DNA of 64,000 nt from a virus (lineage: Duplodnaviria; Caudoviricetes), in the IMG/VR virus record IMGVR_UViG_2974628631_000001, positions 32,001 to 96,000 of that record; one strand, written 5' to 3'. Of the stretch, positions 33,810 to 60,268 are shown piece after piece. The notes below the pieces were generated by a model. That model had not been told where the DNA came from. It did no database searches and saw only the letters and a list, made by a program, of their open reading frames with translations. Both the position numbers and the translations under genes were made by a program. Position 1 is the first letter of the stretch. Every line of letters starts with the position of its first letter.

Positions 33810-33881
33810 TTCGGGTCGGATGTAAACGGTTATCTTTCAATTTGGTGAATACAATATCCCGTTTACAACAACACATCCGAA
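33810..33881 (+). ncRNA. Y-RNA-like RNA 1 (minimal)
   Basis: TCGGGT/ATCCGA terminal stem; GTCGGATG motif; TGTAAACGG/CCGTTTACA stem; GGTTATCT. Confidence 0.7.
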
Positions 33882-33885
33882 TCAT

Positions 33886-33960
33886 TGGGGTATAGCTCGG
33901 TCTGGTTAGAGCAATCGTCTGATAAGCGATAGGTCGTGGGTTCAAATCCCACTGCCCCAA
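33886..33960 (+). tRNA. tRNA-Ile(GAT)
   Basis: ATCGT-CTGATAA-GCGAT. Confidence 0.9.
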
Positions 33961-33964
33961 CTGT

Positions 33965-34097
33965 GTGGGTCGAATGTTATCGGTTATCTTCCAAACAGCG
34001 GGTTATAGGTTCGAATCCTATCCTGGGCTTTCATGTCCAGGTAGCTCAATGGGTAGAGCAGCAGTCCTTTAAACACGATAGCAACAAACATATCCAC
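33965..34097 (+). ncRNA. YrlA-type Y RNA (circularly permuted tRNA-like domain)
   Basis: GTCGAATG motif; T-arm ATAGGTTCGAATCCTAT, then loop-closed acceptor CCTGGGC/GTCCAGG, then D-arm TAGCTCAATGGGTAGAGC. Confidence 0.82.
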
Positions 34098-34103
34098 CAA
34101 GCT

Positions 34104-34246
34104 TGCGGGTCGGAGACATTCGGTTATCTTTGATTCCAATACTATCAGAATTCCGGTTCGACTCCGGATTGTGGACGAATGGGAGTGGGTCCCAGCTAGT
34201 GTGATAGCTAGTTAGTCTACACCTTCCGATGTCATGTATATCCGCA
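34104..34246 (+). ncRNA. Y-RNA-like RNA 3
   Basis: TGCGGGT/ATCCGCA ends; GACATTCGG/CCGATGTC; GGTTATCT; internal T-arm TCCGGTTCGACTCCGGA. Confidence 0.7.
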
Positions 34247-34252
34247 TATAAT

Positions 34253-34339
34253 GGAGGTTCAAGCCGATTGGCGACGGCACTTGTCTTGAAAACAAACGAG
34301 GTGTGAAAGCCCTTGGGGGTTCGACTCCCCCAGCCTCCG
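34253..34339 (+). tRNA. tRNA-Ser(TGA)
   Basis: Loop CTTGAAA; long variable arm. Confidence 0.88.
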
Positions 34340-34361
34340 CTTCCTAGTACTAAGGAGTAAA

Positions 34362-34547
34362 ATGACTGAGACAGAAAATGTCGGTCCTTCTTCCTATCAG
34401 CTAGCAATCATCCTTGCGCTTCAAAGCAAGCATGTGTATGCTAACACTGTAAGTTACGAAGAGATTGCACGACGACGTAAGGCAAGCAAGCGGGCGCGAC
34501 TTCAGCGCAGAACAAACAGAAGGCTTGACACGACACGTCGCTCGTGA
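34362..34547 (+). CDS. small basic protein
   Basis: AAGGAG RBS. Confidence 0.55.
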   Translation: MTETENVGPSSYQLAIILALQSKHVYANTVSYEEIARRRKASKRARLQRRTNRRLDTTRRS

Positions 34548-34633
34548 TAAGGTTTTAACAGAACAACAGATGGTCGGCAAGCAGGTAAGTGAGGAACACA
34601 GGAGCTTGAGCCACAACCCCTCCGCCATCACAT

Positions 34634-34706
34634 GCGTCGTTAGTTCAGCGGTCAGAGCACTGCCCTGTCAAGGCAGAAGTCGCGGGTTCGAATCCCGTAC
34701 GGCGCG
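34634..34706 (+). tRNA. tRNA-Asp(GTC)
   Basis: CTGCC-CTGTCAA-GGCAG. Confidence 0.92.
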
Positions 34707-34744
34707 CATATATAATGTAACTGTTGCCTAGTGATTGGAATAAA

Positions 34745-34948
34745 ATGGCACGTGTTAAGAAGTTTGACCTTGTTGCCCTTGACAAGGACGGCTGGTTCTC
34801 TGCTAAGGTTAGTGGAAAGTTCCGGGGTCTGGTTGAAAAGACAGGTCGAAGCAACTATACTCTCCACCTTGGCAAGGGTGACGTGACCAACTTCAATACG
34901 AAGAAGGCACTTGAGACTTGGCTCACGAACAAGTGGGCAACTAACTAA
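34745..34948 (+). CDS. hypothetical protein
   Basis: ATG 34745; phage-like codon usage. Confidence 0.55.
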   Translation: MARVKKFDLVALDKDGWFSAKVSGKFRGLVEKTGRSNYTLHLGKGDVTNFNTKKALETWLTNKWATN

Positions 34949-34962
34949 ATACTTATAGCGTT

Positions 34963-35020
34963 CGGGTCGGAGGCTTTCGTTTATCATCGGAGAATAAGAC
35001 GATTGTCAACCACATATCCG
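34963..35020 (+). ncRNA. Y-RNA-like RNA 4 (minimal)
   Basis: CGGGTCGGAG..CGTTTATC...CACATATCCG. Confidence 0.6.
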
Positions 35021-35048
35021 CTCTCTAACTTCTAGGCCCTAACAATTT

Positions 35049-35214
35049 CGGGTCGGATGTTCCTCGGTTATCTAAATTATACTGTGAATATAAAGGTGTC
35101 GGTTCGAATCCGGCCGGAAGCGCAATGGTAGACTGTACAATCTGCCAAGTCACTGTAGTTTAAGTGTGGGAATAAAACATCCGTCCTAGGATAAGGATAT
35201 GCACACGCGACCCG
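35049..35214 (+). ncRNA. Y-RNA-like RNA 5 (extended tRNA-like domain)
   Basis: CGGGTCG/CGACCCG ends; CGGTTATCT; T-arm GTCGGTTCGAATCCGGC; D-like TAGTTTAAGTGTGGGAATAAAAC. Confidence 0.65.
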
Positions 35215-35228
35215 TGCCAGTGACGCTT

Positions 35229-35301
35229 GCCCCTGTAGTTCAATGGATAGAGCGACTGCCTTCTAAGCAGTAAGTTGCAGGTTCGAATCCTGTCGGGGGT
35301 A
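35229..35301 (+). tRNA. tRNA-Arg(TCT)
   Basis: ACTGC-CTTCTAA-GCAGT. Confidence 0.92.
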
Positions 35302-35631
35302 CTTTATGAAAGACAAAATGCTTCGTAAAAGGTCTTCTTGGAGAACTTGGACCAGAACATATGGTTCTGAGCAGAAGAGGAATAACCGCGCATTTGAAAA
35401 GAAGCAATGGAGAAAAGAGTGGCTGAGCGAAAGCTGACAGTATACTTTGAATCAAGCGATGACATTGATGAAGACGAGTTCTTTGAATATGTTCATCGCT
35501 TTTTCTGTAAGAATCCCAACGACCCTGATGTAGATAATTGCAGGCTTTACGCGATGACTGCTCAAAGTGTAGTTGAGGAAGAAGAGTAAGCGTGCTATGA
35601 TTGGGCTAACAAAGCCAAAGTAGGAGGCAAG

Positions 35632-36237
35632 TTGCCTAAGAGGAAATTCTTCTACGATACCGAATTCCATGAAGACGGAAAGACGATTGACCTTATTTCA
35701 ATCGGCATTGTCCGTGGTGATGGAAAAGAATATTATGCGGTATCTTCAGAAGCAGATTATCGCCGGATTTATGAGAATAGTTGGCTCATGAATCATGTTA
35801 TGAATACTATTCCGCATGTAGTTGTGGAGGTTCCCAATGATGGTGGATTCACCATTGTTCCAACAGGGCCGGATGTAAAGACTCGTGCTCAAATTAGAGA
35901 AGACATCATCAACTTTGTTGGAGAGAGTCAAGACGTTTTCAATGACCCTCATGGTGAGGCAAAGGCTGAGCTTTGGGCTTGGTATGCTGATTACGACCAT
36001 GTAGCATTGTGTCAGCTCTTTGGTAAGATGATTGATTTGCCTGAGGGATTCCCTATGTTTACAAGGGACCTGAGACAGCATTGGGAGTATTGTGGCTATC
36101 CTGAACTTCCACGTCAGGATGATGGCGAACACAACGCGCTTGACGATGCCAGACATAATCTGGTAATGTGGAAGTACATGGAGGAGCACTGCAAGCAATA
36201 TGGAAACACACGTTTTCTCGGTAATGCTTCAAGTTGA
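35632..36237 (+). CDS. 3'-5' exoribonuclease (RNase AS/Rv2179c-like DEDDh)
   Basis: FYDTEFHEDGKTIDLISIGIV, WAWYADYDHV.LCQL.G.M..LP, HNALDDARHN. Confidence 0.85.
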   Translation: MPKRKFFYDTEFHEDGKTIDLISIGIVRGDGKEYYAVSSEADYRRIYENSWLMNHVMNTIPHVVVEVPNDGGFTIVPTGPDVKTRAQIREDIINFVGESQDVFNDPHGEAKAELWAWYADYDHVALCQLFGKMIDLPEGFPMFTRDLRQHWEYCGYPELPRQDDGEHNALDDARHNLVMWKYMEEHCKQYGNTRFLGNASS

Positions 36238-36326
36238 GGTAGAAGCACCATCTGAGGATGATGCTCGTGAAGCCATCAGAGATTGCTTCGGAGAGGGTAG
36301 CAACTGTGGTGCGAACGTGGTAGAGT

Positions 36327-36548
36327 ATGAGGTGCTTGACCATGCTAGACTTGACTGACATCGAAAATCGCGGGGTTACGTTCAAAAAGTTCTGTGGACT
36401 TGATGCCGAAGATGGTGTAGGATGTACAGAAGAAGCGGTAGGAGACATCACTGCTGAACTAGAAGATGGAGTTAAGATTCCAGTTCCAGTGTGTGAAGGT
36501 CATCTACAAGAACTCATCGCTGCTTACAATGTTGAGCAAGTGAGTTGA
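36327..36548 (+). CDS. small zinc-binding protein
   Basis: C...C...VCEGH. Confidence 0.5.
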   Translation: MRCLTMLDLTDIENRGVTFKKFCGLDAEDGVGCTEEAVGDITAELEDGVKIPVPVCEGHLQELIAAYNVEQVS

Positions 36549-36585
36549 CAGCGGTATGAACTCTTGCTATGATAGAAGAGTTCCT

Positions 36586-36658
36586 GGGGGTGTAGCTCCA
36601 ATGGTAGAGCAACAGCTTTGCAAGCTGAAGGCTGTCGGTTCGAATCCGACCATCTCCA
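36586..36658 (+). tRNA. tRNA-Ala(TGC)
   Basis: G3:U70 pair; loop TTTGCAA. Confidence 0.9.
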
Positions 36659-36692
36659 CTGACCATATTTGGTCTACAAAGGGGGTGTACAC

Positions 36693-36752
36693 ATGTTGTA
36701 CACACTACTAGTAATCTTGGTAATCATCGTTATCTTGATGCTTATCTTCTAA
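36693..36752 (+). CDS. 19-aa hydrophobic microprotein
   Basis: MLYTLLVILVIIVILMLIF; AAAGGGGG upstream. Confidence 0.5.
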   Translation: MLYTLLVILVIIVILMLIF

Positions 36753-36761
36753 GGAGGTAAG

Positions 36762-36851
36762 ATGAGAGGCAGCGATGTAGTATGGACGATTGCAGGAGTA
36801 CTCTTTGCGATTGCTCTAATCGTCTGGCTTGCGGATAACGTAAGCCTTTGA
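36762..36851 (+). CDS. 29-aa single-TM microprotein
   Basis: MRGSDVVWTIAGVLFAIALIVWLADNVSL; AAGGAGGT RBS. Confidence 0.6.
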   Translation: MRGSDVVWTIAGVLFAIALIVWLADNVSL

Positions 36852-36958
36852 TAGAGTAAAGCTCACGAACCTAGGTCGCCTCTGATACAAGCCGCCTATC
36901 AAGTTGTAGTGCACTACGCTTGACGCTCCAGTCCTGAGTCGGGTAAAATGGACAACAT

Positions 36959-37031
36959 GCTCCGGTAGCTCAGTTGGTAGAGCAGTTGACTCTTAATCAT
37001 CAGGTCCTCGGTTCAAGTCCGAGTCGGAGTA
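36959..37031 (+). tRNA. tRNA-Lys(CTT)
   Basis: Loop CTCTTAA. Confidence 0.9.
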
Positions 37032-37056
37032 CGTATAGTATAATAACCCATAAAAC

Positions 37057-37090
37057 ACCCCAGTTGGTTTCCGGCTGGGGTTTTATCTTT
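37057..37090 (+). terminator. intrinsic terminator
   Basis: CCCCAG..CTGGGG followed by TTTTATCTTT. Confidence 0.65.
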
Positions 37091-37102
37091 AAAGGAGAAA
37101 AC

Positions 37103-37906
37103 ATGTTCGGTCGTCGTAAGGCTGCTTTCGTTCCCGACAACACCAAGCGAGTTCTGAAGACTGTCAAGGTTGTTAAGCGAGACCCTTCTACCGCTGCGGC
37201 CCCCGTTGACCTTATCAAGAAGGTTGGGGTTTCTTTTGAAAAGAAGGTCGAGTCTGCGGTCAATCTGAACAAGAACGTCAGTGGCCCTTCTCGTGGAGTC
37301 GTCTGGAATGTCATCGGTCTGCTTGACGAGTCTTACTCTATGGACCCCTTCTTCTATGATGGTACGGTTCAGGAGATTGTTGACCGTGTGCTTGCATGGT
37401 CTGCGTCGGTTGATGCTGATGGCCTGGTGCCTTTCGGCGGGTTTGCTAACAGCCACGTTTGGCACGGTGACGTTGACCTGACGAACGTTAATAACGTCGT
37501 TGCTACAAATGGATGGTCCCCCTGGGGTGGAACCAACCTTGCTGACTCTCTCAAGGCTATCCTTGACATGGTTAAGGATATGGGAGATGCTTGGCAGGAA
37601 AACCCCATCCTTCTGTTCATCGTGACGGATGGTATGCCTCAGAATCAGGCTCTTGTTAAGCAGTACATTCAGGAGCTTTCTCAGTACCCTGTCTTTATCA
37701 AGATTCTGCGGGTGGGTAGTGACCCTGGTGCCAAGGCTTTTGTTGAAGACCTTGACAACATGGTCGGTGGTCGCCTGGTGGATAATGTTGAGGCTCCGGA
37801 TGATGGTCTCCGCAAGGGGATGTCTGACGATAAGTTCAACGCTGCTATGATTAACGACATGGACAAGTACATCAACGACGCAACTGCGGCGGGTCTCCTT
37901 CAGTGA
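37103..37906 (+). CDS. vWA domain protein (TerF/ter-associated vWA-like)
   Basis: MIDAS DESYS, GGTN, FIVTDG, DN motifs; AAGGAG RBS. Confidence 0.8.
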   Translation: MFGRRKAAFVPDNTKRVLKTVKVVKRDPSTAAAPVDLIKKVGVSFEKKVESAVNLNKNVSGPSRGVVWNVIGLLDESYSMDPFFYDGTVQEIVDRVLAWSASVDADGLVPFGGFANSHVWHGDVDLTNVNNVVATNGWSPWGGTNLADSLKAILDMVKDMGDAWQENPILLFIVTDGMPQNQALVKQYIQELSQYPVFIKILRVGSDPGAKAFVEDLDNMVGGRLVDNVEAPDDGLRKGMSDDKFNAAMINDMDKYINDATAAGLLQ

Positions 37907-38146
37907 ACGAACGACTTGACGACATGGTTGAAGCATGGCATACTTCAGGTGAAGAGGAAACACGCTCTCTACAAGAGTACCTTGACATGAATGATGCGGA
38001 GTTTCAGATTTGGGTAGTAACTGCGAAGTTGACAGACTCCTACCTTGACAGACATCCTGAGATGATGTAAGATATAAGAACAAGGTCGCAGGGATACAAC
38101 GCGAGATTCGCTCCGGGTATGTATCTTAAAAGTAAGCTGCGATTAT

Positions 38147-38219
38147 GGCTCGGTGGTGAAATTGGTTATCACGCCTCCCTCATAAGGAAGTATTTCGGGT
38201 TCGAGTCCCGGCTGAGCTA
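38147..38219 (+). tRNA. tRNA-Met/Ile2(CAT)
   Basis: Loop CTCATAA. Confidence 0.85.
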
Positions 38220-38220
38220 C

Positions 38221-38293
38221 TGCGCGGTAGTGGAGTTAGGTTCCACGTGGGGCTCATAACCCTAAGACGCCGGTTCGAATCCGGCCTGCGCCA
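38221..38293 (+). tRNA. initiator tRNA-fMet(CAT)
   Basis: 1:72 mismatch; GGG/CCC anticodon stem. Confidence 0.82.
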
Positions 38294-38314
38294 CTATTTA
38301 CAATAGGAGAGTAT

Positions 38315-38629
38315 TTGTCTTACATTGGAGCAGCCCAGCAGACTTCTGGAGAACAGCCATATTTTCTCGCTCCAGGATTTCTGTTTGGTGATATCATTGA
38401 CGTAGACTTTGACAACAAGGTCTTCAAGGTGAGATTTAGAATTCTATCCTCTCAGAATGAGGATGGGAATTCAGATGGTATTACTACATATGAGGTAAAT
38501 GAGACACATATGGTTGGTGAGGTTTCATTCCATAATCTTACAAATGCCGGTGTCTTTCTTCAGTCTCGTCTAGGAGTAGACGAAACAGTTAGTGTTCCAG
38601 AATTTACGTGGACACCACCAGTTTCCTGA
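38315..38629 (+). CDS. hypothetical protein
   Basis: AGGAG RBS, TTG start. Confidence 0.6.
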   Translation: MSYIGAAQQTSGEQPYFLAPGFLFGDIIDVDFDNKVFKVRFRILSSQNEDGNSDGITTYEVNETHMVGEVSFHNLTNAGVFLQSRLGVDETVSVPEFTWTPPVS

Positions 38630-38694
38630 TTGGATGAAATGATTAGAGACGGTTAAATCCTTCTACTGTCAAAAGTAGAAGGAGGTGTTGAAAA

Positions 38695-38811
38695 ATGCCA
38701 GGACCAATGTCCCGTCCAGATGGACATCGAGAGTCTTCCGAAGAGCGTAAGGCTCGTGGTAAGATGCTCATGAATGGAAAGACCCCGAAGACTGGAAAGT
38801 CTTCAAGGTGA
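38695..38811 (+). CDS. 38-aa basic microprotein
   Basis: AAGGAGGTG RBS; MPGPMSRPDGH... Confidence 0.5.
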   Translation: MPGPMSRPDGHRESSEERKARGKMLMNGKTPKTGKSSR

Positions 38812-38826
38812 GCGAAAGCTCATCCT

Positions 38827-38898
38827 GTCCCTTTAGCTTAGTTGGAAAAGCGTTCGGTTGAAGCCCGAAAGTCTGCGGTTCGATTCCGCGAGGGGACA
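38827..38898 (+). tRNA. tRNA-Phe(GAA)
   Basis: TTCGG-TTGAAGC-CCGAA. Confidence 0.88.
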
Positions 38899-39053
38899 CT
38901 TTATCGTCTATCAAAGGATAATGCAATGGGTTGGTTTAAGAGTGAACCCAAGGAAACACCTAGAGAGACAACCGATGAAGAAGAGGCAGAGGCTAGCTTG
39001 AAGTTTCATACCGCCTCTGGTAGATTTGGTCCGGTAGGAAGGCGAGATGCTAC

Positions 39054-39269
39054 ATGGACGACATCAGAACAGTAAGTGATGAAGACCTGAACCGTCCTGG
39101 TCCTTACTCTTTGACAGATTATCGAGCTGCTGAGGAGCTTGGGATTACGGTTCAGAGAATGGTCGAAATCAATGATGTTTGGTCAAAGCACGCTGGTGAA
39201 AATGCGCGGGAACGAATGAGGCGTCGCAAGGAACGACTTGCAAACCAGCAACGCACTGTGGTAAAGTAG
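39054..39269 (+). CDS. hypothetical protein
   Basis: ORF track; phage codon usage. Confidence 0.55.
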   Translation: MDDIRTVSDEDLNRPGPYSLTDYRAAEELGITVQRMVEINDVWSKHAGENARERMRRRKERLANQQRTVVK

Positions 39270-39294
39270 TAGAAAGACCGCCCGAAAGGGCAAT

Positions 39295-39375
39295 GTACGG
39301 GTTGAGCAGGTGGTGTGCTCCGCTGACTGTAAATCAGCCGCTTCGGCATTGGGGGTTCGATTCCCTTCCCGTGCA
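39295..39375 (+). tRNA. tRNA-Tyr(GTA)
   Basis: GCTGA-CTGTAAA-TCAGC; variable arm. Confidence 0.88.
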
Positions 39376-39389
39376 CTCTGTAGTATCAT

Positions 39390-39461
39390 GCATGTAAGCC
39401 AGGGATAAGCTAGGCGGGCCTGTAAAGCCCTACCTCGTTGGTTCGAATCCAACTACATGCA
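39390..39461 (+). tRNA. second tRNA with GTA anticodon, short variable loop, atypical D-arm
   Basis: GCATGTA/TACATGC; GGGC-CTGTAAA-GCCC. Confidence 0.65.
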
Positions 39462-39463
39462 CT

Positions 39464-40569: not shown

Positions 40570-40865
40570 GGGGTAGCTCAGGTTTCGACTTTGCTAATCA
40601 GGGATATAGACGCAGCCGTTCTTTGGTAAGAGAACTGAAACAGACCAAAACCATAAATGCAAACTCTAAGAATGCATCTGCCTACGCCCTAGCGGCGTGA
40701 TGGCCGGGTTAGTGGGGGACCTAGGAACAGAATGCCCCACCTAAAATAGAGCTTCGGCTCAACTTGTGAAGATAGTGTGCAACACCAGTTAGTGTGATTG
40801 ACATGGCTGTACATCGGATATATGCTAGATAGTGAAGGACGCGGGTTCGATTCCCGCCTACTCCA
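40570..40865 (+). ncRNA. ssrA: tmRNA; tag ANSKNASAYALAA* (40659-40700)
   Basis: 5' GGGGTAG..GGTTTCGAC; 3' GCGGGTTCGATTCCCGCCTACTCCA with G3:U; tag ending YALAA. Confidence 0.92.
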
Positions 40866-40880
40866 CAAGATAGGAAGAAT

Positions 40881-43612: not shown

Positions 43613-43721
43613 CTGCTACCCTATGTAGAACCGTGTAGGGGCTATGCAATGTATCAGGGGGTTGATATCCCTAACGGTTCAAGCTACCATGGAAGTCCAA
43701 GAGTTAATACAAGGAGATGAA

Positions 43722-44771
43722 ATGACTCACGTTTCAGCAATCTTTTCCGTGGACGACCTGAACAAGGCAATTGAGGACGGTTGGGTCAGGGTCCAGACGA
43801 ATGAGGACAACACCCTTTCTATTTACAATTACAGCGAAAGTGCCCAATACAAGCGTTACTGGAATGATGTAACTCTGAATTGTCGGGGCTTGATTCTCGA
43901 CAATGACATGAACATTATTGCTCGTCCGTGGAAGAAGTTCTTCAATTATGGAGAGCGTCCACTGAACATTTCCACAGATGACCCGGTTGAGGTGACGGAC
44001 AAGAAGGACGGCTCTTTGGGTATCCTTTACCGTCACCCGATGACTGGTGATTGGAAGGTTGCGACTCGTGGGTCTTTCCTTTCTGAGCAGGCTCTTCACG
44101 CAACTGCATTGTTCAATGACCGATACAGCCACATTGCAATTCCTACTGAGGGTCTTACCTGTCTCTTTGAGATTGTTTACCCTGAGAACCGCATTGTTCT
44201 GGACTATGGCGAGATGGATGACCTCATTCTTCTTGGTTCGGTACAGAACAAGTATGGCTGGTACTATGGTCCAAACGAGACAGCAGCAATGGTGAACTGG
44301 ACTGGTCCTGTCACTGAGGTGTTCGAGTACCGCACGATGAACGAGGCGTTTGCGGACTACCGTCCAAATGCTGAGGGTCTGGTAATTCGGGCGGGTAGTG
44401 AGATGCTGAAGTTGAAGCAGGCAGACTACGTAGCTTTGCACAAGTTGGTTACGGGTCTGAACGAGCGTGCAGTATGGGAGCGCTTGCGGGATGGCGAGAC
44501 GCGTGATAGTATCTGTGCATCACTTCCTGACGAGTTCCACGGGTTTGTTGACAAGACGGCTGATGCTCTTGAGAAGGAGTTCCAGTCAATCTACTTGACG
44601 GCACACCAGAACTATTGTACTGTTCTGAACAAGATGGGAGCGGGCTACAGCCGCAAGGACTTTGCTCTTGAGGCAATCAAGTACCCCAACCCTTCTCTAC
44701 TGTTCAACTTCCTTGACAACAAGTCGAATCGTCAGTCAGTATGGGACATGATTCGACCGAAGGGTGAGTAA
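43722..44771 (+). CDS. RNA ligase 1 (T4 Rnl1-like)
   Basis: CRGLI, RPWKKFFN, KKDGSL (motif I), ATRGSF, FEIV, EGLV, LKLK. Confidence 0.92.
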   Translation: MTHVSAIFSVDDLNKAIEDGWVRVQTNEDNTLSIYNYSESAQYKRYWNDVTLNCRGLILDNDMNIIARPWKKFFNYGERPLNISTDDPVEVTDKKDGSLGILYRHPMTGDWKVATRGSFLSEQALHATALFNDRYSHIAIPTEGLTCLFEIVYPENRIVLDYGEMDDLILLGSVQNKYGWYYGPNETAAMVNWTGPVTEVFEYRTMNEAFADYRPNAEGLVIRAGSEMLKLKQADYVALHKLVTGLNERAVWERLRDGETRDSICASLPDEFHGFVDKTADALEKEFQSIYLTAHQNYCTVLNKMGAGYSRKDFALEAIKYPNPSLLFNFLDNKSNRQSVWDMIRPKGE

Positions 44772-45305: not shown

Positions 45306-46196
45306 ATGCTAGAGCTGGTTATTAATCGCGGAATTCCCGGAAGTGGCAAGTCTACTTTCGCTGAGGCATGGGTGAATTCCGCAAATGGCCGAGTGCGCAG
45401 TAACCGAGATGACATTCGTCTTTCTGGATACGGCGTTGAGTTCGGTCCGCCTATCGATGAGAAGGTTGTTACGGAGATTCAGCACGCTGGAATCCGGGCC
45501 GCACTTTCCGCCGGGGTTTCGGTTATTGTTGATGACTGCAACATTGAGCAGAAGTACATCAATACTCTTGCCCGAATTGGATACGAGTACGGAGCAGAGG
45601 TTTCCATCAATCTGATTGATGTTCCTGTTGCTGTCGCTCTTGAGCGTAACCGTATCCGAAAGGACCATGGAGGACGCTTTGTTCCTGAGAATGTGATTGT
45701 ATCTATGCATTCTCGACTTCAGGGTCTTAAGAATGTCAGCCTTCCGGAGCGAATCGTATTCAATAAGTACACTGGATACAGCAAGAATCCTGAGGCTGTC
45801 ATGGTTGACATTGATGGTACGCTTGCTAAGATGACTCGTAGGGGTCCATTCGACTGGCTTCGTGTTGGTGAGGATGAGCCTATCGAGAGGGTTATTGAGA
45901 TTGTCAACCTGTACTGGAGTGCTGGCAAGAAGATTGTGGTAATGTCTGGTCGTGACAGCGTTTGCCGTGAGCAGACGATTGAGTGGCTTGACAAGAACCT
46001 TGTCCCATGGGATGCTCTTTTCATGCGTCCCGAGAAGGACATGCGAAAGGACAGTATCGTCAAGCACGAACTGTTCTGGGCACATGTCGCTCCGTTCTAC
46101 AATGTTCAGACTGTTCTTGATGACCGTAAGCAGGTTGTAGACATGTGGCGAGAGATTGGCCTTACGTGCTTCCAGGTTGCGCCGGGTGATTTCTGA
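45306..46196 (+). CDS. polynucleotide 5'-kinase/3'-phosphatase (T4 PseT-like)
   Basis: GIPGSGKST, NRDDIR kinase; DIDGTLA, SGR, DDR HAD phosphatase. Confidence 0.93.
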   Translation: MLELVINRGIPGSGKSTFAEAWVNSANGRVRSNRDDIRLSGYGVEFGPPIDEKVVTEIQHAGIRAALSAGVSVIVDDCNIEQKYINTLARIGYEYGAEVSINLIDVPVAVALERNRIRKDHGGRFVPENVIVSMHSRLQGLKNVSLPERIVFNKYTGYSKNPEAVMVDIDGTLAKMTRRGPFDWLRVGEDEPIERVIEIVNLYWSAGKKIVVMSGRDSVCREQTIEWLDKNLVPWDALFMRPEKDMRKDSIVKHELFWAHVAPFYNVQTVLDDRKQVVDMWREIGLTCFQVAPGDF

Positions 46197-54407: not shown

Positions 54408-55181
54408 ATGAAGATTATGGTTCTTGGTGACACTCATGGTGAGACGCAATGGACTAAGGACATTGTAAAGCGGGCTCATCGCATGAAGGTCGAAAAGATT
54501 ATTCAAGTAGGTGACTTTGGCATCTGGACTCATGAGGCTGAGGGTCACCGCTTTCTGGATACTGTCAATGAAGAACTCCGCCGGGTTGGCATTAAGATGT
54601 ACTTCGTTGGCGGCAATCACGAGAATTGGGACCATCTTAACTGGTTCCAAAAGAACAACGCCAAGAGTGGTGACGGACACACGTACATTCGTTCACACAT
54701 TCTGTATACTGGACGTGTTCACCGCTGGACTTGGGGCGAGAAGGGTTCCGAGAAGATTTTTCAGGCTGTTGGTGGAGCTGTCTCCGTTGACAAGAACTGG
54801 CGAACCGTAGGAAAGACCCTGTGGCTCGATGAGGAAATTCCTGAGCCTGTCGTTTATGGTCTGGAGAAGGCTGGTCGCCAATGCGATTACCTTTTTACTC
54901 ACGATGCGCCTAGCTGCGTTCCGATGAGTAATCTGAAGCCTGACATGGATTCGGCTCGTCACCGTGGTTACATGGACCGAATTGGGCGGGCTGTCCGACC
55001 CAATCTTTGGTTCCATGGTCACTACCACAAGTGGATGGAGTACAGCTTTATGCATCAGCAGGGCTATGCTTTCGTCTACGGTCTTGACCGAGACTTCCAG
55101 TTCTACAGCTATGTTATTCTTGACACTGATAGTGACAACGTAACTACTGCAACTGGCAAGGTTGTGGAGCACGGAAACTAA
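54408..55181 (+). CDS. metallophosphoesterase
   Basis: GDTHG, VGDFG, GNHE, THDAP, HGHYH. Confidence 0.88.
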   Translation: MKIMVLGDTHGETQWTKDIVKRAHRMKVEKIIQVGDFGIWTHEAEGHRFLDTVNEELRRVGIKMYFVGGNHENWDHLNWFQKNNAKSGDGHTYIRSHILYTGRVHRWTWGEKGSEKIFQAVGGAVSVDKNWRTVGKTLWLDEEIPEPVVYGLEKAGRQCDYLFTHDAPSCVPMSNLKPDMDSARHRGYMDRIGRAVRPNLWFHGHYHKWMEYSFMHQQGYAFVYGLDRDFQFYSYVILDTDSDNVTTATGKVVEHGN

Positions 55182-55268
55182 GCATTTGCCATTTGAAAAC
55201 ATTTCCAATACAATGAAATGTATGGAGGTTAACGCCTCCGATAGATTTTGAGGAGGTGTACAATTCAA

Positions 55269-55706
55269 ATGGCAAATGAAGAGAAGAACGAGTCACGTAT
55301 TCTTTCTGACGATGAGCGCGCTGCTGCTCTAAAGGAGTCTGACGCTCGTGCTGCGAAGAAGGATTACAAGCCTGTTACTGCTCAGTCTGCTGTTGCGGTT
55401 CACGGACCACACGGCGTTGAGGAGGCTGCTGCAAAGCGTGCAAAGGATGCTGGTGTCATCGACCCTGCGTTCGTAAACTATGCAGAGGCTCTAGAGAATT
55501 ACCAGGCTCGTCCAGACGTTGAGCCACTAGATGAGCGTCGCGCTCGTGAGGGTGGACGTGACTTCCAGGCTGCTGCATTCCGTCGTGAAATTGGTGGAAC
55601 AGACAACTCTGGAGTAACCACTTCTGAGGACGTTGCTACTGGAGCGGCTGAGGACAACAAGGACAACAACAAGACTGTTGCTGCCCGTAAGCCTTCCGCA
55701 AAGTAA
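55269..55706 (+). CDS. hypothetical protein
   Basis: GAGGAGGTG RBS; followed by terminator. Confidence 0.65.
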   Translation: MANEEKNESRILSDDERAAALKESDARAAKKDYKPVTAQSAVAVHGPHGVEEAAAKRAKDAGVIDPAFVNYAEALENYQARPDVEPLDERRAREGGRDFQAAAFRREIGGTDNSGVTTSEDVATGAAEDNKDNNKTVAARKPSAK

Positions 55707-55720
55707 GCGTTGTTATTCGT

Positions 55721-55763
55721 AAAAAGACCGGGGTTGACAAAGCCCCGGTCTTTTGCGTATACT
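55721..55763 (+). terminator. bidirectional terminator overlapping a promoter
   Basis: AAAAGACCGGGG/CCCCGGTCTTTT; TTGACA(55734)-18-TATACT. Confidence 0.7.
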
Positions 55764-55779
55764 ATAGAAACACAAACGA

Positions 55780-55852
55780 AATCCCTTAGCTCAGTTGGCA
55801 GAGCGCTGGACTTTTAATCCAAGTGTCGTCGGTTCGAGTCCGACAGGGATTA
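55780..55852 (+). tRNA. tRNA-Lys(TTT)
   Basis: Loop CTTTTAA. Confidence 0.88.
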
Positions 55853-55922
55853 CTCTTGACACGCCTGTGTCAAAAATGTTAAGATGCATGTATGATGCAA
55901 TTTGAACGAAAGGTAAGGACTT

Positions 55923-56159
55923 ATGCCTAATCTCGATTACAAGGCTGCCCACAAGTTTGTCAAGGAGCAGCGCCGGATTGGTAATGCTGTTCGCTGGGAT
56001 GGCTGGGACATGGTATTCTGGAAGCCGACTCGACATGGCTTCACGAATGTCAACGGAGCCTTTGATAGGGACAAGGGTCGCTGGGGCGTAGAGTCCCGAG
56101 TTTCCGTCAATACAGACGGTGTTTGGATGGTCCCTAAGAAGAATGTCAAGTCTGCTTGA
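55923..56159 (+). CDS. hypothetical protein
   Basis: AAGGA RBS; WDGWD motif. Confidence 0.6.
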   Translation: MPNLDYKAAHKFVKEQRRIGNAVRWDGWDMVFWKPTRHGFTNVNGAFDRDKGRWGVESRVSVNTDGVWMVPKKNVKSA

Positions 56160-56451
56160 GGAATTCGGGCTAGACCCGGAGGATTTCGAATGGCAAGACT
56201 TGGCTCTATGCTCTAGTATGCCGACAGCTTTCTTCTATGATTCTTATGAGTCAGACCAGGAAACGGCAAAGTCTATTGACCAAGTCTGCCTTCGATGTCC
56301 TGTCATTAAAGAGTGTTTCTTTGCAGGTGCTAGAGGGGAACACGGAGTTTGGGGCGGGTTTTATTGGAATGGCTCTGGTAGCCCAGACAAGAATAAAAAC
56401 TCCCACAAAACTGATGAGGTAAAAGCGGAGATTCTAAGGAGGGTAGAATGA
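56143..56451 (+). CDS. WhiB-family transcription factor
   Basis: WQDLALC...AK..CLRCPVIKEC...GVWGG. Confidence 0.9.
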   Translation: MSSLLEEFGLDPEDFEWQDLALCSSMPTAFFYDSYESDQETAKSIDQVCLRCPVIKECFFAGARGEHGVWGGFYWNGSGSPDKNKNSHKTDEVKAEILRRVE

Positions 56452-56705
56452 GTCAATACTCTCCTGAAGTACAGCGAATCTTCAAGACGATGAAGTCTCC
56501 CTATCAAGGCTTCATCGTGGATATGGTAGAATATCCTGACTACCTTGCACTACGGGTCTATAAGCCTAACATTGAAGAATTCAGCGAGATGCAAAAAGTA
56601 GCTCTCGCTGAATATCTGTTTCAGCTAAGAGATACAATTAGGTCAGAAGAAGTCAAGTGCCACATTGAGGGAGTCACTGATGCACCACCTTCTGGAAAAC
56701 GATAA
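56448..56705 (+). CDS. hypothetical protein
   Basis: Coupled ORF. Confidence 0.55.
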   Translation: MSQYSPEVQRIFKTMKSPYQGFIVDMVEYPDYLALRVYKPNIEEFSEMQKVALAEYLFQLRDTIRSEEVKCHIEGVTDAPPSGKR

Positions 56706-56870
56706 GCGTTACCCTCGCATTCTTATGATTGAGGAGAACGTCATCGGACATCTTGTCCAGCGCAATGCGTATTTTTCGCGGGTTAAGTACAGCATTCTTG
56801 GACATGAATACAACATTGAGGTAGACAACGATGAATATCTGGAGCTGCCTCAGATTGGATATGAGAGCGA

Positions 56871-57119
56871 TTGAGCGAGTCGGTTGTTTGTGCTTGCTGC
56901 GGAAGGCAGCACAATGAGCTACGTGCCCAGAACTCCAGACTGATTGCCGGAAATAAGTTCTTCGCATGTCCGTCATGCAAGGCAGACAAGAAAGAGCCTC
57001 GCGCTTACGTTATTCTTGTCGGCAGGGCTTCCGGTCCTGATTCAGTGACAGACTACATTTTGAACCGTCGATACTGCGGGGATGAAATTCTGGCCAAGGA
57101 ACTGGTTACAAGGCGTTAA
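56871..57119 (+). CDS. zinc-binding hypothetical protein
   Basis: CACCG...CPSC. Confidence 0.55.
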   Translation: MSESVVCACCGRQHNELRAQNSRLIAGNKFFACPSCKADKKEPRAYVILVGRASGPDSVTDYILNRRYCGDEILAKELVTRR

Positions 57120-57148
57120 AACTTAATAGGCGGGTTTTCCCGCCATAC

Positions 57149-57221
57149 CCCCGGTTAGCTTAACTGGTAAAAGCAGCGTACTTATACTACGTATTTATGA
57201 GTTCGAATCTCATACTGGGGA
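57149..57221 (+). tRNA. tRNA-Ile(TAT)
   Basis: GCGTA-CTTATAC-TACGT; canonical D and T arms. Confidence 0.82.
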
Positions 57222-57271
57222 CCTAGAAAGTATGATTGGACTTTTAAGCGTCAAAACGTTATACTTTAATC

Positions 57272-57703
57272 ATGTCCAGACTAGTGAGTTTCTTTAAGGC
57301 TGTGGCTGAACGTCCCACTGAAGCAATCGAAGGAATCATCGCTACGGCGGTATTTCTTGTTGGCTTGTGGTTCATCAGTCCCTTTTATGAGCCTACTACA
57401 TCTGTGCAATCCCAAATTTGGGAAAGTGCAAATATCCCACAGTTTACTGGTGTCTTTCAGGCATTGGTTGCAGGAATTCTCCTATTTGCTCTGGTCAGAA
57501 AGGGTTGGGCAAGAAGGCAAATGGTTCGTCGGCAGGCGACATTTGCCATTTTCATTCTCTACCTGTTTTACGGACTCTCTTCCACCATGATTCTAGGAAT
57601 GGGGAGGGTTTCATGGGTGGCTACATTCGCTCTTGCTCTTATCTCGGGTGTGGCACATCTAAGGCTAAAGTGGGAGGAGGGTGAAGCCAATGCCAGAGAT
57701 TAG
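57272..57703 (+). CDS. 4-TM membrane protein
   Basis: Four hydrophobic segments. Confidence 0.7.
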   Translation: MSRLVSFFKAVAERPTEAIEGIIATAVFLVGLWFISPFYEPTTSVQSQIWESANIPQFTGVFQALVAGILLFALVRKGWARRQMVRRQATFAIFILYLFYGLSSTMILGMGRVSWVATFALALISGVAHLRLKWEEGEANARD

Positions 57704-57986
57704 TCAGGCGTGGCTAGCCCTGCTGGGTGCTTTGCTTGGTGGTTCTGGACTCAAGATTATTGAGTATTGGCTAAATCGCTCGAAGGTGAGGGAAGATGCT
57801 GCTGCGCAGATGCGTACTGAGCTGAGAGATGAAATCAAAGTTCTCCGTGAAGAATTGCGTACAGTTGAAGACGAACTTGACAAGTGGCGCGGCAAGTACT
57901 ATGAATTGATGGATGAGTTCATGAAGGCCAAGAGTGACCTAGCTGAGGCTCTAAGCCGTGCACGCAACCAAGCTAACGAGTCTTGA
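57690..57986 (+). CDS. membrane-anchored coiled-coil protein
   Basis: N-terminal TM + heptads; GGAGGAGG RBS. Confidence 0.7.
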   Translation: MPEISQAWLALLGALLGGSGLKIIEYWLNRSKVREDAAAQMRTELRDEIKVLREELRTVEDELDKWRGKYYELMDEFMKAKSDLAEALSRARNQANES

Positions 57987-58156
57987 CGAGACGCGAGAAG
58001 CTGTGTATAGTAGTAGATGCGAGTGGGAGAGAGACCCACAAACTTTTCCGGCGGGGTGAGGATGAAAGTCTGTAGAAACACCGGATGCGAGCGGAGCGCA
58101 CAATCTCCGCATTAAGCTTTTAAACGATTATGTAGTAGAATGGTTACGGAAGGGAG

Positions 58157-58441
58157 GTGCCTAATTTGGCATTTTACGCCGTTAACTCATTCTACTACAA
58201 TGAGGAGACTGGAAACATGTTCCTCTATCTGACTAAGCCTACAGAGGTTTCTTACGAACACTCATCAGAGTATCTTCCTGAGGACATCTTTGAGGCTCAG
58301 ATTTTCCTTGATGGAGGAATCGCTTTGATTGGAAAGAACCGACCACCTTCCCAGGATGGTACAATTCCTGGTGGAATGTATGGTAGAACAGCAAGTCCTA
58401 GCGATGACACAGTTAACCCTCTAGAAGACGCTCCCGAGTGA
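58157..58441 (+). CDS. hypothetical protein
   Basis: GGAGG near start. Confidence 0.55.
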   Translation: MPNLAFYAVNSFYYNEETGNMFLYLTKPTEVSYEHSSEYLPEDIFEAQIFLDGGIALIGKNRPPSQDGTIPGGMYGRTASPSDDTVNPLEDAPE

Positions 58442-58513
58442 CTTGACAGAGCTTAAGACGCTCTGCTAGAGTATAGATACAAGGTAAGGCAACCGCCCAA
58501 GAGTTGCCAACAT

Positions 58514-58586
58514 GCTCCCGTAGAGTAAAGGTTATCTCGCTTCCCTCTCAAGGAAGAGACTGCCGGTTCGAATCCGGTCGGGAGTG
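58514..58586 (+). tRNA. tRNA-Glu(CTC)
   Basis: CTTCC-CTCTCAA-GGAAG. Confidence 0.9.
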
Positions 58587-58923
58587 CAAATCGTTTCTGG
58601 TTGACATATTAAAAGGTTGCAACCACTCCAGAAATGGTCTAGGCTGAGTAGGAAACATTACGAACCCTCAATAGCCGATTCACGTAGTATACAGATGAAT
58701 ACTAACCGTGAATTTTGTGAAAACTGCCGACACCCTCTCGTTCCTTCAGAAGGAAAGTGGGACAATGTGGATTATCCGGATTGGGCGTGTGATGGAGTTC
58801 TGACTTTCGAGCCGGACCCGTTTGCACAAGAAATTCATGATGACCACAGTAACTACTGGAATTGTGATGGAGGGAGATACGAGTCGGCAATGGACATTTG
58901 AATATCGGGCCTTCGGGCCACAT

Positions 58924-58998
58924 GCCCCGGTAGATTCTGCTGGTAGAATCGTAAGACTTTCAATCTTGAGTTCGCGGGTTCGATTCCCGTCCGGGGTA
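58924..58998 (+). tRNA. tRNA-Glu(TTC)
   Basis: TAAGA-CTTTCAA-TCTTG. Confidence 0.88.
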
Positions 58999-59129
58999 CA
59001 ATGAATAGCTAATGTTTCTGATTTCGAATAGGGAATTGCAGCTATGCAGGAGGCCCAAGATACTAGTTAGGGTAACAGATGTTGCATGACGGCTTCGGAC
59101 ATCTTTAAACAATCAGGAAACCGTCACCA

Positions 59130-59200
59130 TCCGGCGTAGTAAAATGGTATTACATCTGCTTGCCAAGCAGAAAGCGCGAGTTCGATTCTCGTCGCCGGGA
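59130..59200 (+). tRNA. tRNA-Gly(GCC)
   Basis: TCTGC-TTGCCAA-GCAGA. Confidence 0.88.
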
Positions 59201-59245
59201 CTTCTGGGGCTTACATAAAGTAAGTCCCTTTTTCATTGGAGTGAT

Positions 59246-59446
59246 ATGAACTTCGTTACTCTTTGGAAGGATAAAGACGAATCAACTGGCATCACCCTGC
59301 ACTATGCAGGAGATGCTACAGTTCTGGAAAGCTCTATTCTTCCAATTAAGGCTCACTATTTTGAAACTAATAGTGAAGCAAAGGAATTTATTATCAAGCA
59401 GGCTTACGCCTTGCTTTCTCTTGGATATGAGGTCCATTCAGAATGA
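59246..59446 (+). CDS. hypothetical protein
   Basis: GGAG RBS. Confidence 0.5.
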   Translation: MNFVTLWKDKDESTGITLHYAGDATVLESSILPIKAHYFETNSEAKEFIIKQAYALLSLGYEVHSE

Positions 59447-59967
59447 TTCAGCTCAATTCTCGTGTGAAGATTAACGAGACCTATTCCGGCGGGATTCCTG
59501 ATGTCATCGGCAAGGTTGGCAAGGTTCAGCATGTTGCCGGAAACGTCTTCCAGCTCACTGTGACTGGAAAGGTGGAGAGTCAATATTACCGTGGTCACTT
59601 CTATGACTATAACGTTCTCGCCACCCTCTCAGAAATTGATGAGGTCCCGTACAACTTCAAGGACATGGAAGGCAACCTGGTTGAACTTGGTGATACTGTC
59701 GTGTATGGTAGCAACAAGGGTGACATGACCAAGGGCAAGGTTGTTGACATCAAGGACTTGACTCATGTACGATGGGGAGTCGATAAGAAGGAGACCAAGT
59801 TCCAGCTTGAGTACGAGGTTGATGAAAACCTGTATGATGGTGTTGAGCGTAGAGTTGCCAAGATTATCACCCGCCGAAAGTGGCTGAGTGAGGGTCATCG
59901 CACGCTTATTGTTCAGAAGGGACTCTCCAGTTATTTCCCTGGGGAGCTGATTATTCAAGATGCCTGA
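59443..59967 (+). CDS. hypothetical protein with two SH3/KOW-like modules
   Basis: NSRVKI..IGKVGKV; LGDTVVY..KGKVVDI. Confidence 0.55.
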   Translation: MIQLNSRVKINETYSGGIPDVIGKVGKVQHVAGNVFQLTVTGKVESQYYRGHFYDYNVLATLSEIDEVPYNFKDMEGNLVELGDTVVYGSNKGDMTKGKVVDIKDLTHVRWGVDKKETKFQLEYEVDENLYDGVERRVAKIITRRKWLSEGHRTLIVQKGLSSYFPGELIIQDA

Positions 59968-60154
59968 CAGACAGAAGAAGCCAAAGCCGATGGGTAATGG
60001 AAACTACACAATTTGCAGGAAGTGCCACGGCTTTGGTACAATCGTAGAAACGAAGCACTACCGAGGCAAGGTTCTTGCCAACAAGAACAACGAAGTTGAC
60101 CTCTTCATCAGATGTCCAAAGTGTCTTGGTGGAGGCTGGACAGTCGCCAAGTAG
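59960..60154 (+). CDS. DnaJ-type zinc-finger microprotein
   Basis: CRKCHGFG / CPKCLGGG. Confidence 0.6.
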   Translation: MPDRQKKPKPMGNGNYTICRKCHGFGTIVETKHYRGKVLANKNNEVDLFIRCPKCLGGGWTVAK

Positions 60155-60166
60155 TGTGCTATGATG

Positions 60167-60268
60167 GATACATCGGGTCGGAGATAAACGGTTATCATGG
60201 ATGAAATTGACTAACGCTCGATTGGGTTTCGATACCCGCTCCGTTTGTCACACCACATCCGATGTATC
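60167..60268 (+). ncRNA. Y-RNA-like RNA 6
   Basis: GATACATCGG/CCGATGTATC; GGGTCGGAG; GATAAACGG/CCGTTTGTC; GGTTATC; T-loop-like GGGTTTCGATACCC; TGCTATGAT -10 upstream. Confidence 0.7.

Follow-up and report, generated by a model that had tools for sequence, protein, structure and literature searches.

The locus described here raises the question of what is encoded by six similar intergenic elements that lie in the tRNA region of the viral genome IMGVR_UViG_2974628631_000001. This IMG/VR record represents a 125,726 bp viral genome with direct terminal repeats and a completeness rating of 100%, and the window referred to throughout is the stretch of 64,000 nucleotides that was analysed (bases 32001-96000 of the record). 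Judged by identity over the array region, its nearest named relatives are the Streptomyces phages Beuffert (93.9%) and Blueeyedbeauty (93.3%), both of the genus Annadreamyvirus in the Stanwilliamsviridae, and the array region is matched by 55 Streptomyces phage records. Y RNAs are small RNAs whose usual partner is Ro60, a ring-shaped protein to which they dock. A first-pass annotation, made from the letters of the DNA alone, had proposed that the six elements are Y-RNA-like non-coding RNAs in which one scaffold under structural selection carries variable payloads. This proposal held, as a covariance model of the scaffold finds members of the family beside Ro60 genes in phages and bacteria, and the elements are most probably bacterial-type Y RNA genes of the YrlA/YrlB kind, the fifth of them truncated, in the tRNA region of a Streptomyces-type phage.

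The six elements are all on the plus strand and are designated by copy number and array position: copy 1 (position A, 33808-33883), copy 2 (position B, 33962-34099), copy 3 (position C, 34102-34248), copy 4 (position D, 34959-35024, the shortest), copy 5 (position E, 35049-35114, a 5′ half only, cut within its T-arm) and copy 6 (position F, 60165-60270). Copies 1-4 and 6 stand where they had originally been placed, whereas copy 5 had been drawn as 35049-35214, of which only 35049 to approximately 35114 belongs to the family. The word GGGTCGRA occurs nine times in the window as compared to an expectation of 2.97 +/- 1.68, a count attained by none of 100 shuffled sequences, and six of the nine occurrences are the plus-strand sites of the proposed elements. 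Throughout the genome, the pattern G.CG[AG]A.{0,1}G.{5,10}TTATC is confined to these six places and one unrelated site on the minus strand. In the intact copies GGGU pairs with AUCC to form a terminal helix, P1, an outer pairing that the first-pass annotation had not described, and the flanking bases lengthen this helix, differing between copies while staying complementary (ttc/gaa, gt/ac, tgc/gca and gatacatc/gatgtatc). Inside P1 the strands open into an asymmetric internal loop, to which the 5′ strand contributes CGRA and the 3′ strand 5-9 bases, mainly A or C; this is followed by a second, covarying helix, P2, of 8-9 pairs closed by GG/CC, which corresponds to the inner stems quoted in the first-pass annotation; these do exist and do pair. 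Beyond P2 lies an invariant UUAUC and then a variable apical payload. Both helices were found in all five intact copies by reading of the sequence and by folding.

A covariance model, R1, was built from 23 short elements, namely copies 1, 4 and 6 of the window together with 20 from IMG/VR contigs, and the window was searched with filters off. Copies 2 (36.4 bits, E 6.7e-7) and 3 (29.8 bits, E 2.9e-5), neither of which was in the training set, were recovered together with the training members copy 1 (57.2 bits, E 4.9e-12), copy 4 (43.7 bits, E 1.1e-8) and copy 6 (57.3 bits, E 4.7e-12). Truncated copy 5 scored 11.3 bits (E 1.1), and nothing significant beyond copies 1-4 and 6 was detected in the window or the rest of the genome. 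The search of related phages that had been proposed with such a model returned six elements in each of Blueeyedbeauty, Sham, SparkleGoddess and Emma1919 and five in Faust. In each of these five phages, four or five elements lie no more than about 3.5 kb upstream of a Ro-like gene and one, the orthologue of copy 6, at 96-98 kb. The orthologous elements of all five lie on the strand of Ro60 and within about 4 kb of it, position F being about 26-29 kb away even in the relatives. A Ro-like protein is annotated at the same syntenic place in Beuffert, Faust, Sham, TunaTartare, SparkleGoddess, Emma1919 and Francob.

The association with Ro60 extends well beyond this group of phages. R1 elements were found in Mycobacterium phage Cali (two), Streptomyces phage Coruscant (three), Gordonia phage Sixama (two) and Microbacterium phage FuzzBuster (three), while a viral contig of 87 kb carries six in tandem directly before Ro60. 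On this unrelated contig (61% G+C) the six elements are arranged head to tail on the minus strand at 7164-7876 of the extracted locus (L005), upstream of Ro60 and with spacers of 5-17 nt, and two of them have YrlA-type modules. The exact motif is present in at least 119 IMG/VR loci, and 31 of those listed also have Ro60 within the short stretch examined; a wider IMG/VR search returned some contigs with 5-7 elements. For bacteria, R1 was applied to 80 loci, the best 80 of at least 185, which were chosen solely for encoding Ro60 and most of which reach 5 kb each way. At E <= 0.01 it returned 80 matches distributed over 53 of the 80 loci, every one of them on the strand of Ro60; by hand count 66 were upstream, within about 1.4 kb of the gene, and 14 downstream, within about 1.9 kb of it. 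Multi-copy Y RNA sets are also present in bacteria, as six elements were found in L162 (4770-8386), four in L131 (31-438) and four in L170 (1448-3545), which by their record titles are an Anaerolineae metagenome-assembled genome (MAG), a Mycobacterium MAG and another Anaerolineae MAG, respectively. The set of six in one phage had been thought unusually large, an impression that was not borne out, since other Ro60 phage contigs have 5-7 elements and one bacterial locus has six.

The P1 and P2 scaffold is under selection for RNA structure. In the 23 short elements (aligned with MAFFT) 89.8% of cells at paired positions were paired as compared to 68.8% after shuffling, and 15 of 19 pairs showed compensatory double changes; none of 500 shuffles matched any measure, and sliding the pairing partner by 1-3 columns gave at most 49.6%. 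When 102 distinct phage elements were aligned to the model, the corresponding values were 90.3% versus 64.8%, with double changes at 17 of 18 pairs and at most 44.5% in the slid controls, although selection and alignment in both of these sets were aided by structure, which biases the counts towards it. This bias is smaller for the orthologue alignments discussed below and for 64 bacterial elements that had no part in model building, in which 93.2% of cells were paired as compared to 64.1% after shuffling, with double changes at 16 of 18 pairs. The G, C and G of GGGUCG are invariant or nearly so, as is the UUA of UUAUC, which is present in 102 of 102 phage and 63-64 of 64 bacterial elements. 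One P1 position is a G.U pair in 101 of 102 phage elements, while in the 64 bacterial elements it is G.U in 40 and G-C in 20.

These elements were compared with the bacterial Y RNAs described by Chen et al. 2014 (PMC4201824), which are characterized by GNCGAAN0-1G, YUAY and a tRNA-like domain, with at least two Y RNAs per species. The two published motifs map onto GUCGRA(N)G and UUAU(C) of the elements described here, and the 5′ motif of copy 2, GUCGAAUG, is an exact fit to GNCGAAN0-1G. Copies lacking a tRNA-like domain contain UUAUC as well, which suggests that this sequence is part of the Ro60 handle rather than of the tRNA mimic. In a search of the Rfam models, copy 2 matched YrlA (RF02553) with 37.8 bits (E 4.9e-5 in a 29.5-kb search and 2.4e-6 in a 1.5-kb search), the alignment covering model positions 1-114 and including the T-arm, the acceptor-like stem and the D-arm. 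The same type of search gave 36.1 bits for Cali and 32-34 bits for Blueeyedbeauty and the 87-kb contig. At E <= 10 the metazoan Y_RNA model (RF00019) matched neither 32000-61500 nor 33780-35260. Copies 1, 3, 4 and 6 are not of the YrlA type because they have no domain composed of T-arm, acceptor-like stem and D-arm.

Several observations have to be set against the assignment to bacterial-type Y RNAs. The score of copy 2 is below the RF02553 gathering score of 69, and the covariation counts from the 23- and 102-element sets carry the bias stated above. Five of the six copies (1 and 3-6) have GUCGGA(U)G, which differs from the published motif by one A-to-G change and thus presents CGGA for CGAA. 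The family nevertheless tolerates either purine at this position, because A and G are nearly equally frequent there in both sets (A 49 and G 48 in the 102 distinct phage elements; A 32 and G 25 in the 64 Ro60-adjacent bacterial elements). No Ro60 or TROVE gene, which it had been suggested should be sought in the rest of the genome, was found in the 125,726 bp by Pfam hidden Markov models (HMMs) or with the Blueeyedbeauty protein, the best tblastn hit having an E value of 0.14, and the elements here consequently have no Ro60 gene on their strand within about 4 kb. The same TROVE HMM detected Ro60 in five of five other complete viral genomes with the scaffold. Finally, none of the public runs listed covers half or more of window 34700-35500 and no RNA run is among the matches; the site at which, as described next, Ro60 appears to have been lost is bridged by no contig from four public runs, and its 40-nt sequence occurs in no other IMG/VR contig.

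The absence of Ro60 from this genome is explained by a deletion that took the gene out and that also shortened copy 5. By BLAST, window 32001-35114 aligns to the Blueeyedbeauty locus (L002) at 1951-5073 and window 35097-37091 to the same locus at 9013-11003, while tRNA-Arg(acg) of Blueeyedbeauty is annotated at 8967-9039. The two aligned segments overlap by 18 nt (the putative deletion junction, 35097-35114), and this overlap is T-arm sequence common to the full copy 5 and to tRNA-Arg(acg) of Blueeyedbeauty. The full copy 5 of that phage continues with its T-arm, an 8-bp acceptor-like stem, a D-arm, the 3′ strand of P2 and AUCC. Approximately 3.9 kb is missing from the window, corresponding to six genes in Blueeyedbeauty, and these include gp103, a Ro60 orthologue (TROVE E 2.6e-40; vWA_Ro60 E 1.2e-64). 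Beuffert has the undeleted arrangement, as in Blueeyedbeauty. On alignment, copy 5 of the window is therefore the 5′ half of a YrlA-type element that a deletion has, by this comparison, joined to the 3′ end of tRNA-Arg(acg), of which a remnant of about 26 nt is left (35097-35122, plus strand). Recombination across 18 nt of T-arm sequence appears to have removed the intervening sequence, Ro60 included. The tRNA remnant is followed, as far as 35228, by the spacer that separates it from tRNA-Arg(tct), and the GACCC that had been assigned to the 3′ part of copy 5 is unrelated to the family. The spacer (35123-35228) folds into a long helix (AGUCACUG...CAGUGAC) that is conserved in Blueeyedbeauty and lies outside the Y RNA family.

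The deletion rests on one assembled record, as no independent read set or contig holds the junction, and it could be that the lack of Ro60 arose in assembly or marks a minor variant, and that the real population has Ro60 and a full copy 5 in an ordinary six-Y-RNA locus. In favour of this, the junction is confined to this record, and Ro60 is present in every other scaffold-bearing genome examined. Two 151-nt contigs, from one of the four public runs assembled, are identical to the window and end at 35114. The deletion is supported by contigs of relatives in public runs, which cease to match the window at exactly 35097 and 35111 and continue into undeleted sequence. Against an artefact, the sequence shared at the junction amounts to just 18 nt, which is shorter than the word lengths that assemblers usually employ; the record, with its direct terminal repeats, has a completeness rating of 100%, and both flanks are otherwise collinear with the relatives. 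We thus regard an artefact or minor variant as unlikely, and the genome looks like a natural Ro60-minus variant.

If the deletion is real, the five Y RNAs left in this genome have either been orphaned recently or rely on Ro60 supplied in trans. It is conceivable that Y RNAs of this phage act without a phage Ro60, either loaded onto a host Ro60 (Rsr) or, independently of Ro60, as tRNA mimics that bind or sponge host proteins of tRNA handling or RNA decay. All invariant scaffold positions and the payload helices are kept in the five copies in spite of the loss of Ro60, TROVE genes were found in 36 of 401 genomes sampled from the class to which a Nocardia genome belongs, and gel-shift experiments have been reported in which Y-like RNAs of a Thermus phage bound host PNPase unaided (PMC12135203). 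By record titles there is no Streptomyces among the best 80 of at least 185 bacterial Ro60 loci, which is not evidence of absence from that genus. Retention of the five copies may merely reflect a recent deletion, however, and all other scaffold phages examined have a Ro60 of their own; activity without a phage Ro60 is considered improbable. The candidate accounts of this genome are thus recent orphaning of its Y RNAs, a host Ro60 that serves them, or a deletion that is unrepresentative. The proposal in the first-pass annotation that one Ro-type protein is retargeted by six adaptor RNAs fits the relatives and does not apply to this genome as assembled, because the deletion removed Ro60 and truncated copy 5.

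The payloads differ between the copies. Copy 1, which is short and YrlB-like, folds into a 7-bp P1, the CGGA loop, a 9-bp P2, UUAUC and a small irregular apical hairpin, and its payload is identical in Blueeyedbeauty. With P1 constrained, the payload of copy 4 is a small hairpin; the P2 of this copy contains a 2x2 U.U mismatch in both the window and Blueeyedbeauty and is perfect in Emma1919. The constrained fold of copy 2 comprises a small hairpin, a T-arm, a 7-bp acceptor-like hairpin and a D-arm, and that of copy 3 a hairpin, a T-arm-like hairpin and then a stem of 6-7 bp around two hairpins. Copy 6, whose position is occupied in five relatives, has a P1 of up to 12 bp and a 9-bp P2, and one of its three small hairpins resembles a T-arm; its fold (z-score -3.4) was equalled by 1 of 200 shuffled sequences. 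Orthologue alignments (MAFFT and RNAalifold) gave 31 predicted pairs for position B across seven orthologues, ten of them with compensatory double changes, two of which, in the acceptor-like stem, separate the window from Blueeyedbeauty, and 39 pairs for position C across six orthologues, 15 of them with double changes. At position B all three arms are predicted; compensatory changes occur in the T-arm and the acceptor-like stem, and the pairs of the D-arm are invariant. Copy 2 has a T-arm, an acceptor-like stem and a D-arm, but an anticodon arm at the position expected in a tRNA was seen in none of the payloads, either in folds or in alignments. For this reason the suggestion that the elements are decoys for anticodon nucleases is left with no structural basis.

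Payload types were compared by shared 9-mers. All seven phages compared keep P1 and its flanks at position A, ahead of tRNA-Ile, and at position F, ahead of tRNA-Gly(tcc). However, the P2 and payload sequences that the window and Blueeyedbeauty have at these positions share no 9-mer at all with those of Faust, Sham, SparkleGoddess, Emma1919 and Francob, and element length at a single position spans 75-107 nt or 76-126 nt. The Faust element at position A and the SparkleGoddess element at position F share 22 payload 9-mers, including P2 and an identical block of 36 nt, and differ in their P1 helices and flanks. The most conserved positions are B and E, both of which hold tRNA mimics. These comparisons support replacement of payload cassettes at two array positions and their sharing between positions in relatives, based on seven genomes with one clear case of sharing, and in this evolutionary sense the payloads are indeed interchangeable. 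In SparkleGoddess (L205 2897 to about 2990), Emma1919 (L206 2338 to about 2430) and Francob (L207 3136 to about 3230) an extra scaffold-like element lies between position C and tRNA-Ser; it has UUUAUC, ends in ACCC where the others have AUCC, falls below the R1 thresholds used and is absent from the window.

The tRNA-like payloads bring up the notion that the elements, unconnected with Ro60, are decayed tRNA genes or serve the tRNA cluster as processing signals that resemble tRNAs. The elements do lie among tRNAs, four payloads contain T-arm-like hairpins, the T-arm of copy 2 is identical to that of the phage tRNA-Pro at 17 of 17 positions, and part of copy 5 is annotated as a tRNA in records of relatives: in GenBank the 5′ part of position E is given as tRNA-His(gtg) in Blueeyedbeauty (67008-67080; L001 4312-4384), and that in Sham (68289-68350; L203 3669-3730) is labelled as a 62-nt tRNA-Ser(cga). 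However, ARAGORN called none of the six elements, and the partial matches to the Rfam tRNA model (RF00005) reach only 21.1 and 22.1 bits as compared to a cut-off of 29. Moreover, copies 1 and 4 are wholly without a tRNA-like part, the scaffold is not a feature of tRNAs, and it adjoins Ro60 in bacteria that have no tRNA cluster at that place. A degenerate tRNA origin without Ro60 is accordingly very unlikely, and the tRNA-His and tRNA-Ser labels look like mis-annotation of a YrlA-type RNA. Equally, it is scarcely credible that the repeats act as DNA, in the role of reiterated promoters, operators or recombination sites. The 5′ block does keep the same DNA word on a single strand, and payload replacement suggests recombination at conserved ends, but compensatory changes maintain two helices in three independent sets, and the retention of the P1 G.U pair on one strand only fits RNA and not DNA.

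As bacterial-type Y RNAs, the elements can be placed among known systems. In common with YrlA/YrlB of Salmonella Typhimurium and Mycobacterium smegmatis (PMC4201824, RF02553) they have a 5′ motif of the GNCGAAN0-1G type, YUAY (here UUAUC) and paired ends; a tRNA mimic (copy 2 and the ancestral copy 5) stands beside shorter hairpin RNAs (copies 1 and 4), and in relatives the genes are on the Ro60 strand within 4 kb. M. smegmatis YrlA has a 7-bp acceptor stem and is cleaved by RNase P and provided with CCA (PMC4201824), and copy 2 likewise has a predicted 7-bp acceptor-like stem. They differ from YrlA/YrlB as described there in the presence of six genes instead of two, in CGGA for CGAA in five copies, in being interleaved with tRNA genes, in the Rfam score below gathering and in the lack of a Ro60 gene in this genome, and from the Rfam YrlA consensus in that CGRA occupies an internal loop separating two helices, whereas that consensus has it inside the first one. 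YrlA RNAs were listed for 22 phages, Bxz1-like mycobacteriophages, by Chen et al. 2014 (PMC4201824), and these resemble the present case in having a phage Ro60 with Y RNAs just upstream; in Cali, which is taken as a described YrlA case by its Bxz1-type group only, there are two R1 matches with the Rfam YrlA match between them. The present phage and its relatives differ from the Bxz1-like phages in phage family, in host genus and in having six elements as compared to 2-3 in Cali, a contrast to be read with the supplementary tables of Chen et al. 2014 in mind, as these may list several per phage.

A second phage precedent is Thermus phage phiLo, for which it was shown by experiment that Ro60 binds two phage Y-like RNAs, Yrl1 and Yrl2, and assembles with host PNPase (PMC12135203). 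There too the Y-like RNAs are upstream of a phage Ro60, and a stem formed by the 5′ and 3′ ends flanks an internal loop with CGAA; unlike the array described here, phiLo has two RNAs, and no tRNA-like module is reported in the description on which the comparison is based. Deinococcus radiodurans similarly has several Y RNAs, Yrn1 and Yrn2, beside rsr, and Yrn2 shares one precursor with tRNA-Asp and Yrn1, although these belong to a separate Y RNA lineage with another arm order and are bacterial and stress-induced (PMC4201824). Several Y RNAs per Ro60 are thus already known in bacteria and animals, and phage Y RNAs with Ro60 are known from the 22 phages of Chen et al. 2014 and from phiLo (2025), so that the array is a new example and not a new kind of system. 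No literature report of Y RNAs in Streptomyces phages was found, in a search that did not extend to the phage YrlAs tabulated in the supplement to Chen et al. 2014, and no Y RNA is annotated in the array regions of the Blueeyedbeauty, Faust, Sham, TunaTartare, SparkleGoddess, Emma1919, Francob and Beuffert records. What seems to be added to existing knowledge is the scaffold signature, the turnover of cassettes and the Ro60-minus relative.

Y RNAs are modular, the end-paired stem binding Ro60 and another module binding an effector, which in Deinococcus and Salmonella is PNPase (preprint 10.1101/312249; PMC4201824). By analogy with this published model the conserved module would be the handle bound by Ro60 and the payload would dock a second protein, possibly a 3′-5′ exoribonuclease such as host PNPase or enzymes that recognise tRNA. 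In the ancestral phage one Ro60 may have been loaded with six RNAs whose different payloads recruited different partners, and such complexes could serve to degrade, survey or repair structured RNAs, next to the 30 tRNAs, tmRNA, RNA ligase and kinase-phosphatase of the phage. Recombination over the T-arm shared by copy 5 and tRNA-Arg(acg) would then have deleted Ro60 from this genome. The position of the elements suggests that the Y RNAs may be made within tRNA transcripts and that tRNA processing may define their ends. Of the intact copies, three out of five (1, 3 and 6) end 2-7 nt before the 5′ end of a tRNA, and copy 2 starts 0-3 nt after one. The tRNAs concerned, all on the plus strand, are tRNA-Ile(gat) at 33886-33961 (ARAGORN; Rfam tRNA 67.4 bits), which starts 2-4 nt past copy 1 and ends 0-3 nt ahead of copy 2, tRNA-Ser(tga) at 34253-34340 (ARAGORN), which starts 4-6 nt past copy 3, and tRNA-Gly(tcc) at 60273-60344 (ARAGORN; Rfam tRNA 68.6 bits), which starts 2-7 nt past copy 6. 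A further-reaching proposition, which we put forward tentatively and consider doubtful as a whole, is that the scaffold is a portable Ro60 handle with exchangeable cassettes, that P2 and payload are swapped between positions, that recombination with tRNA genes proceeds via the T-arm (the route of the Ro60 deletion), and that the five Y RNAs of this genome would function without a phage Ro60, either via host Ro60 or directly on host proteins of tRNA handling or RNA decay.

The Y RNA/Ro60 system is old, its function in bacteria and phages is still poorly understood, and published work indicates that further Y RNAs await discovery. The general signature, GGGUCGRA, a helix and UUAUC ... CAYAUCC, picks out Ro60-adjacent Y RNAs in several bacterial phyla and many phages. 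Cultured Streptomyces phages are available with six distinct Y RNAs each, some of them mislabelled as tRNAs, as is the sequence of a relative that seems to be Ro60-less yet retains its Y RNAs. Together these offer a way to ask what the payloads recruit and whether the RNAs depend on Ro60.

With regard to the surroundings of the array, ARAGORN identified 30 tRNAs and a tmRNA in the window and Rfam, at gathering score, 31 tRNAs and the tmRNA; the sequence at 39390-39461 is a tRNA by Rfam (35.3 bits) and missing from the ARAGORN list. Promoter-like sites, which are consensus matches only, were noted about 20 nt upstream of copy 1 (33759-33787, plus strand, 9 of 12 consensus positions) and abutting copy 6 (60137-60165, plus strand, 10 of 12), both with TG before the second hexamer. 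The number of such matches was 9 as compared to 4.5 +/- 2.5 expected in the copy 1 region, and 6 as compared to 2.5 +/- 1.9. A terminator-like hairpin with a 10-bp stem containing seven GC pairs follows tRNA-Gly(tcc) at 60356-60379 (plus strand), and a unit of promoter, Y RNA, tRNA and terminator is thus possible in the copy 6 region.

The first-pass annotation had placed the elements beside tRNAs and RNA-repair enzymes. Copies have tRNA-Ile, tRNA-Ser and tRNA-Gly as neighbours, and the same region encodes, on the plus strand, an RNA ligase of the T4 Rnl1 type (43644-44771; Pfam PF09511, E 2.3e-15) and a polynucleotide kinase-phosphatase (45306-46196; Pfam PF25109, E 2.4e-56, plus AAA_33). An open reading frame (ORF) with an Rv2179c-like 3′-5′ exoribonuclease domain (35632-36237, plus strand; Pfam PF16473, E 9.1e-12) starts about 400 nt past the array, and its counterparts are annotated as Rnase H in Blueeyedbeauty and as a DnaQ-like DNA polymerase III subunit in Beuffert. 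Because the known partners of Ro60 and Y RNAs are 3′-5′ exoribonucleases, we infer that its product is a candidate effector. The ORF at 36974-37906 has a vWA-TerF-like domain (E 9e-25), and its longest reading overlaps tRNA-Lys(ctt); the gene is not at the matching place in Blueeyedbeauty and is there in Beuffert, Francob, SparkleGoddess and others that have Ro60. It was considered as a substitute for Ro60 and rejected, as Ro60-bearing relatives have it too. Upstream of the array, 33617-33691 scores only 20.9 bits as a tRNA, with no ARAGORN call, where Blueeyedbeauty has tRNA-Trp(cca) (Rfam 54.3 bits); the two sequences are very unlike, yet a T-arm and a CUCCAAA loop are visible, and the sequence may be a replaced or unusual tRNA-Trp. 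The phage tmRNA is located at 40570-40868 (ARAGORN; Rfam 79.4 bits) and specifies the tag ANSKNASAYALAA.

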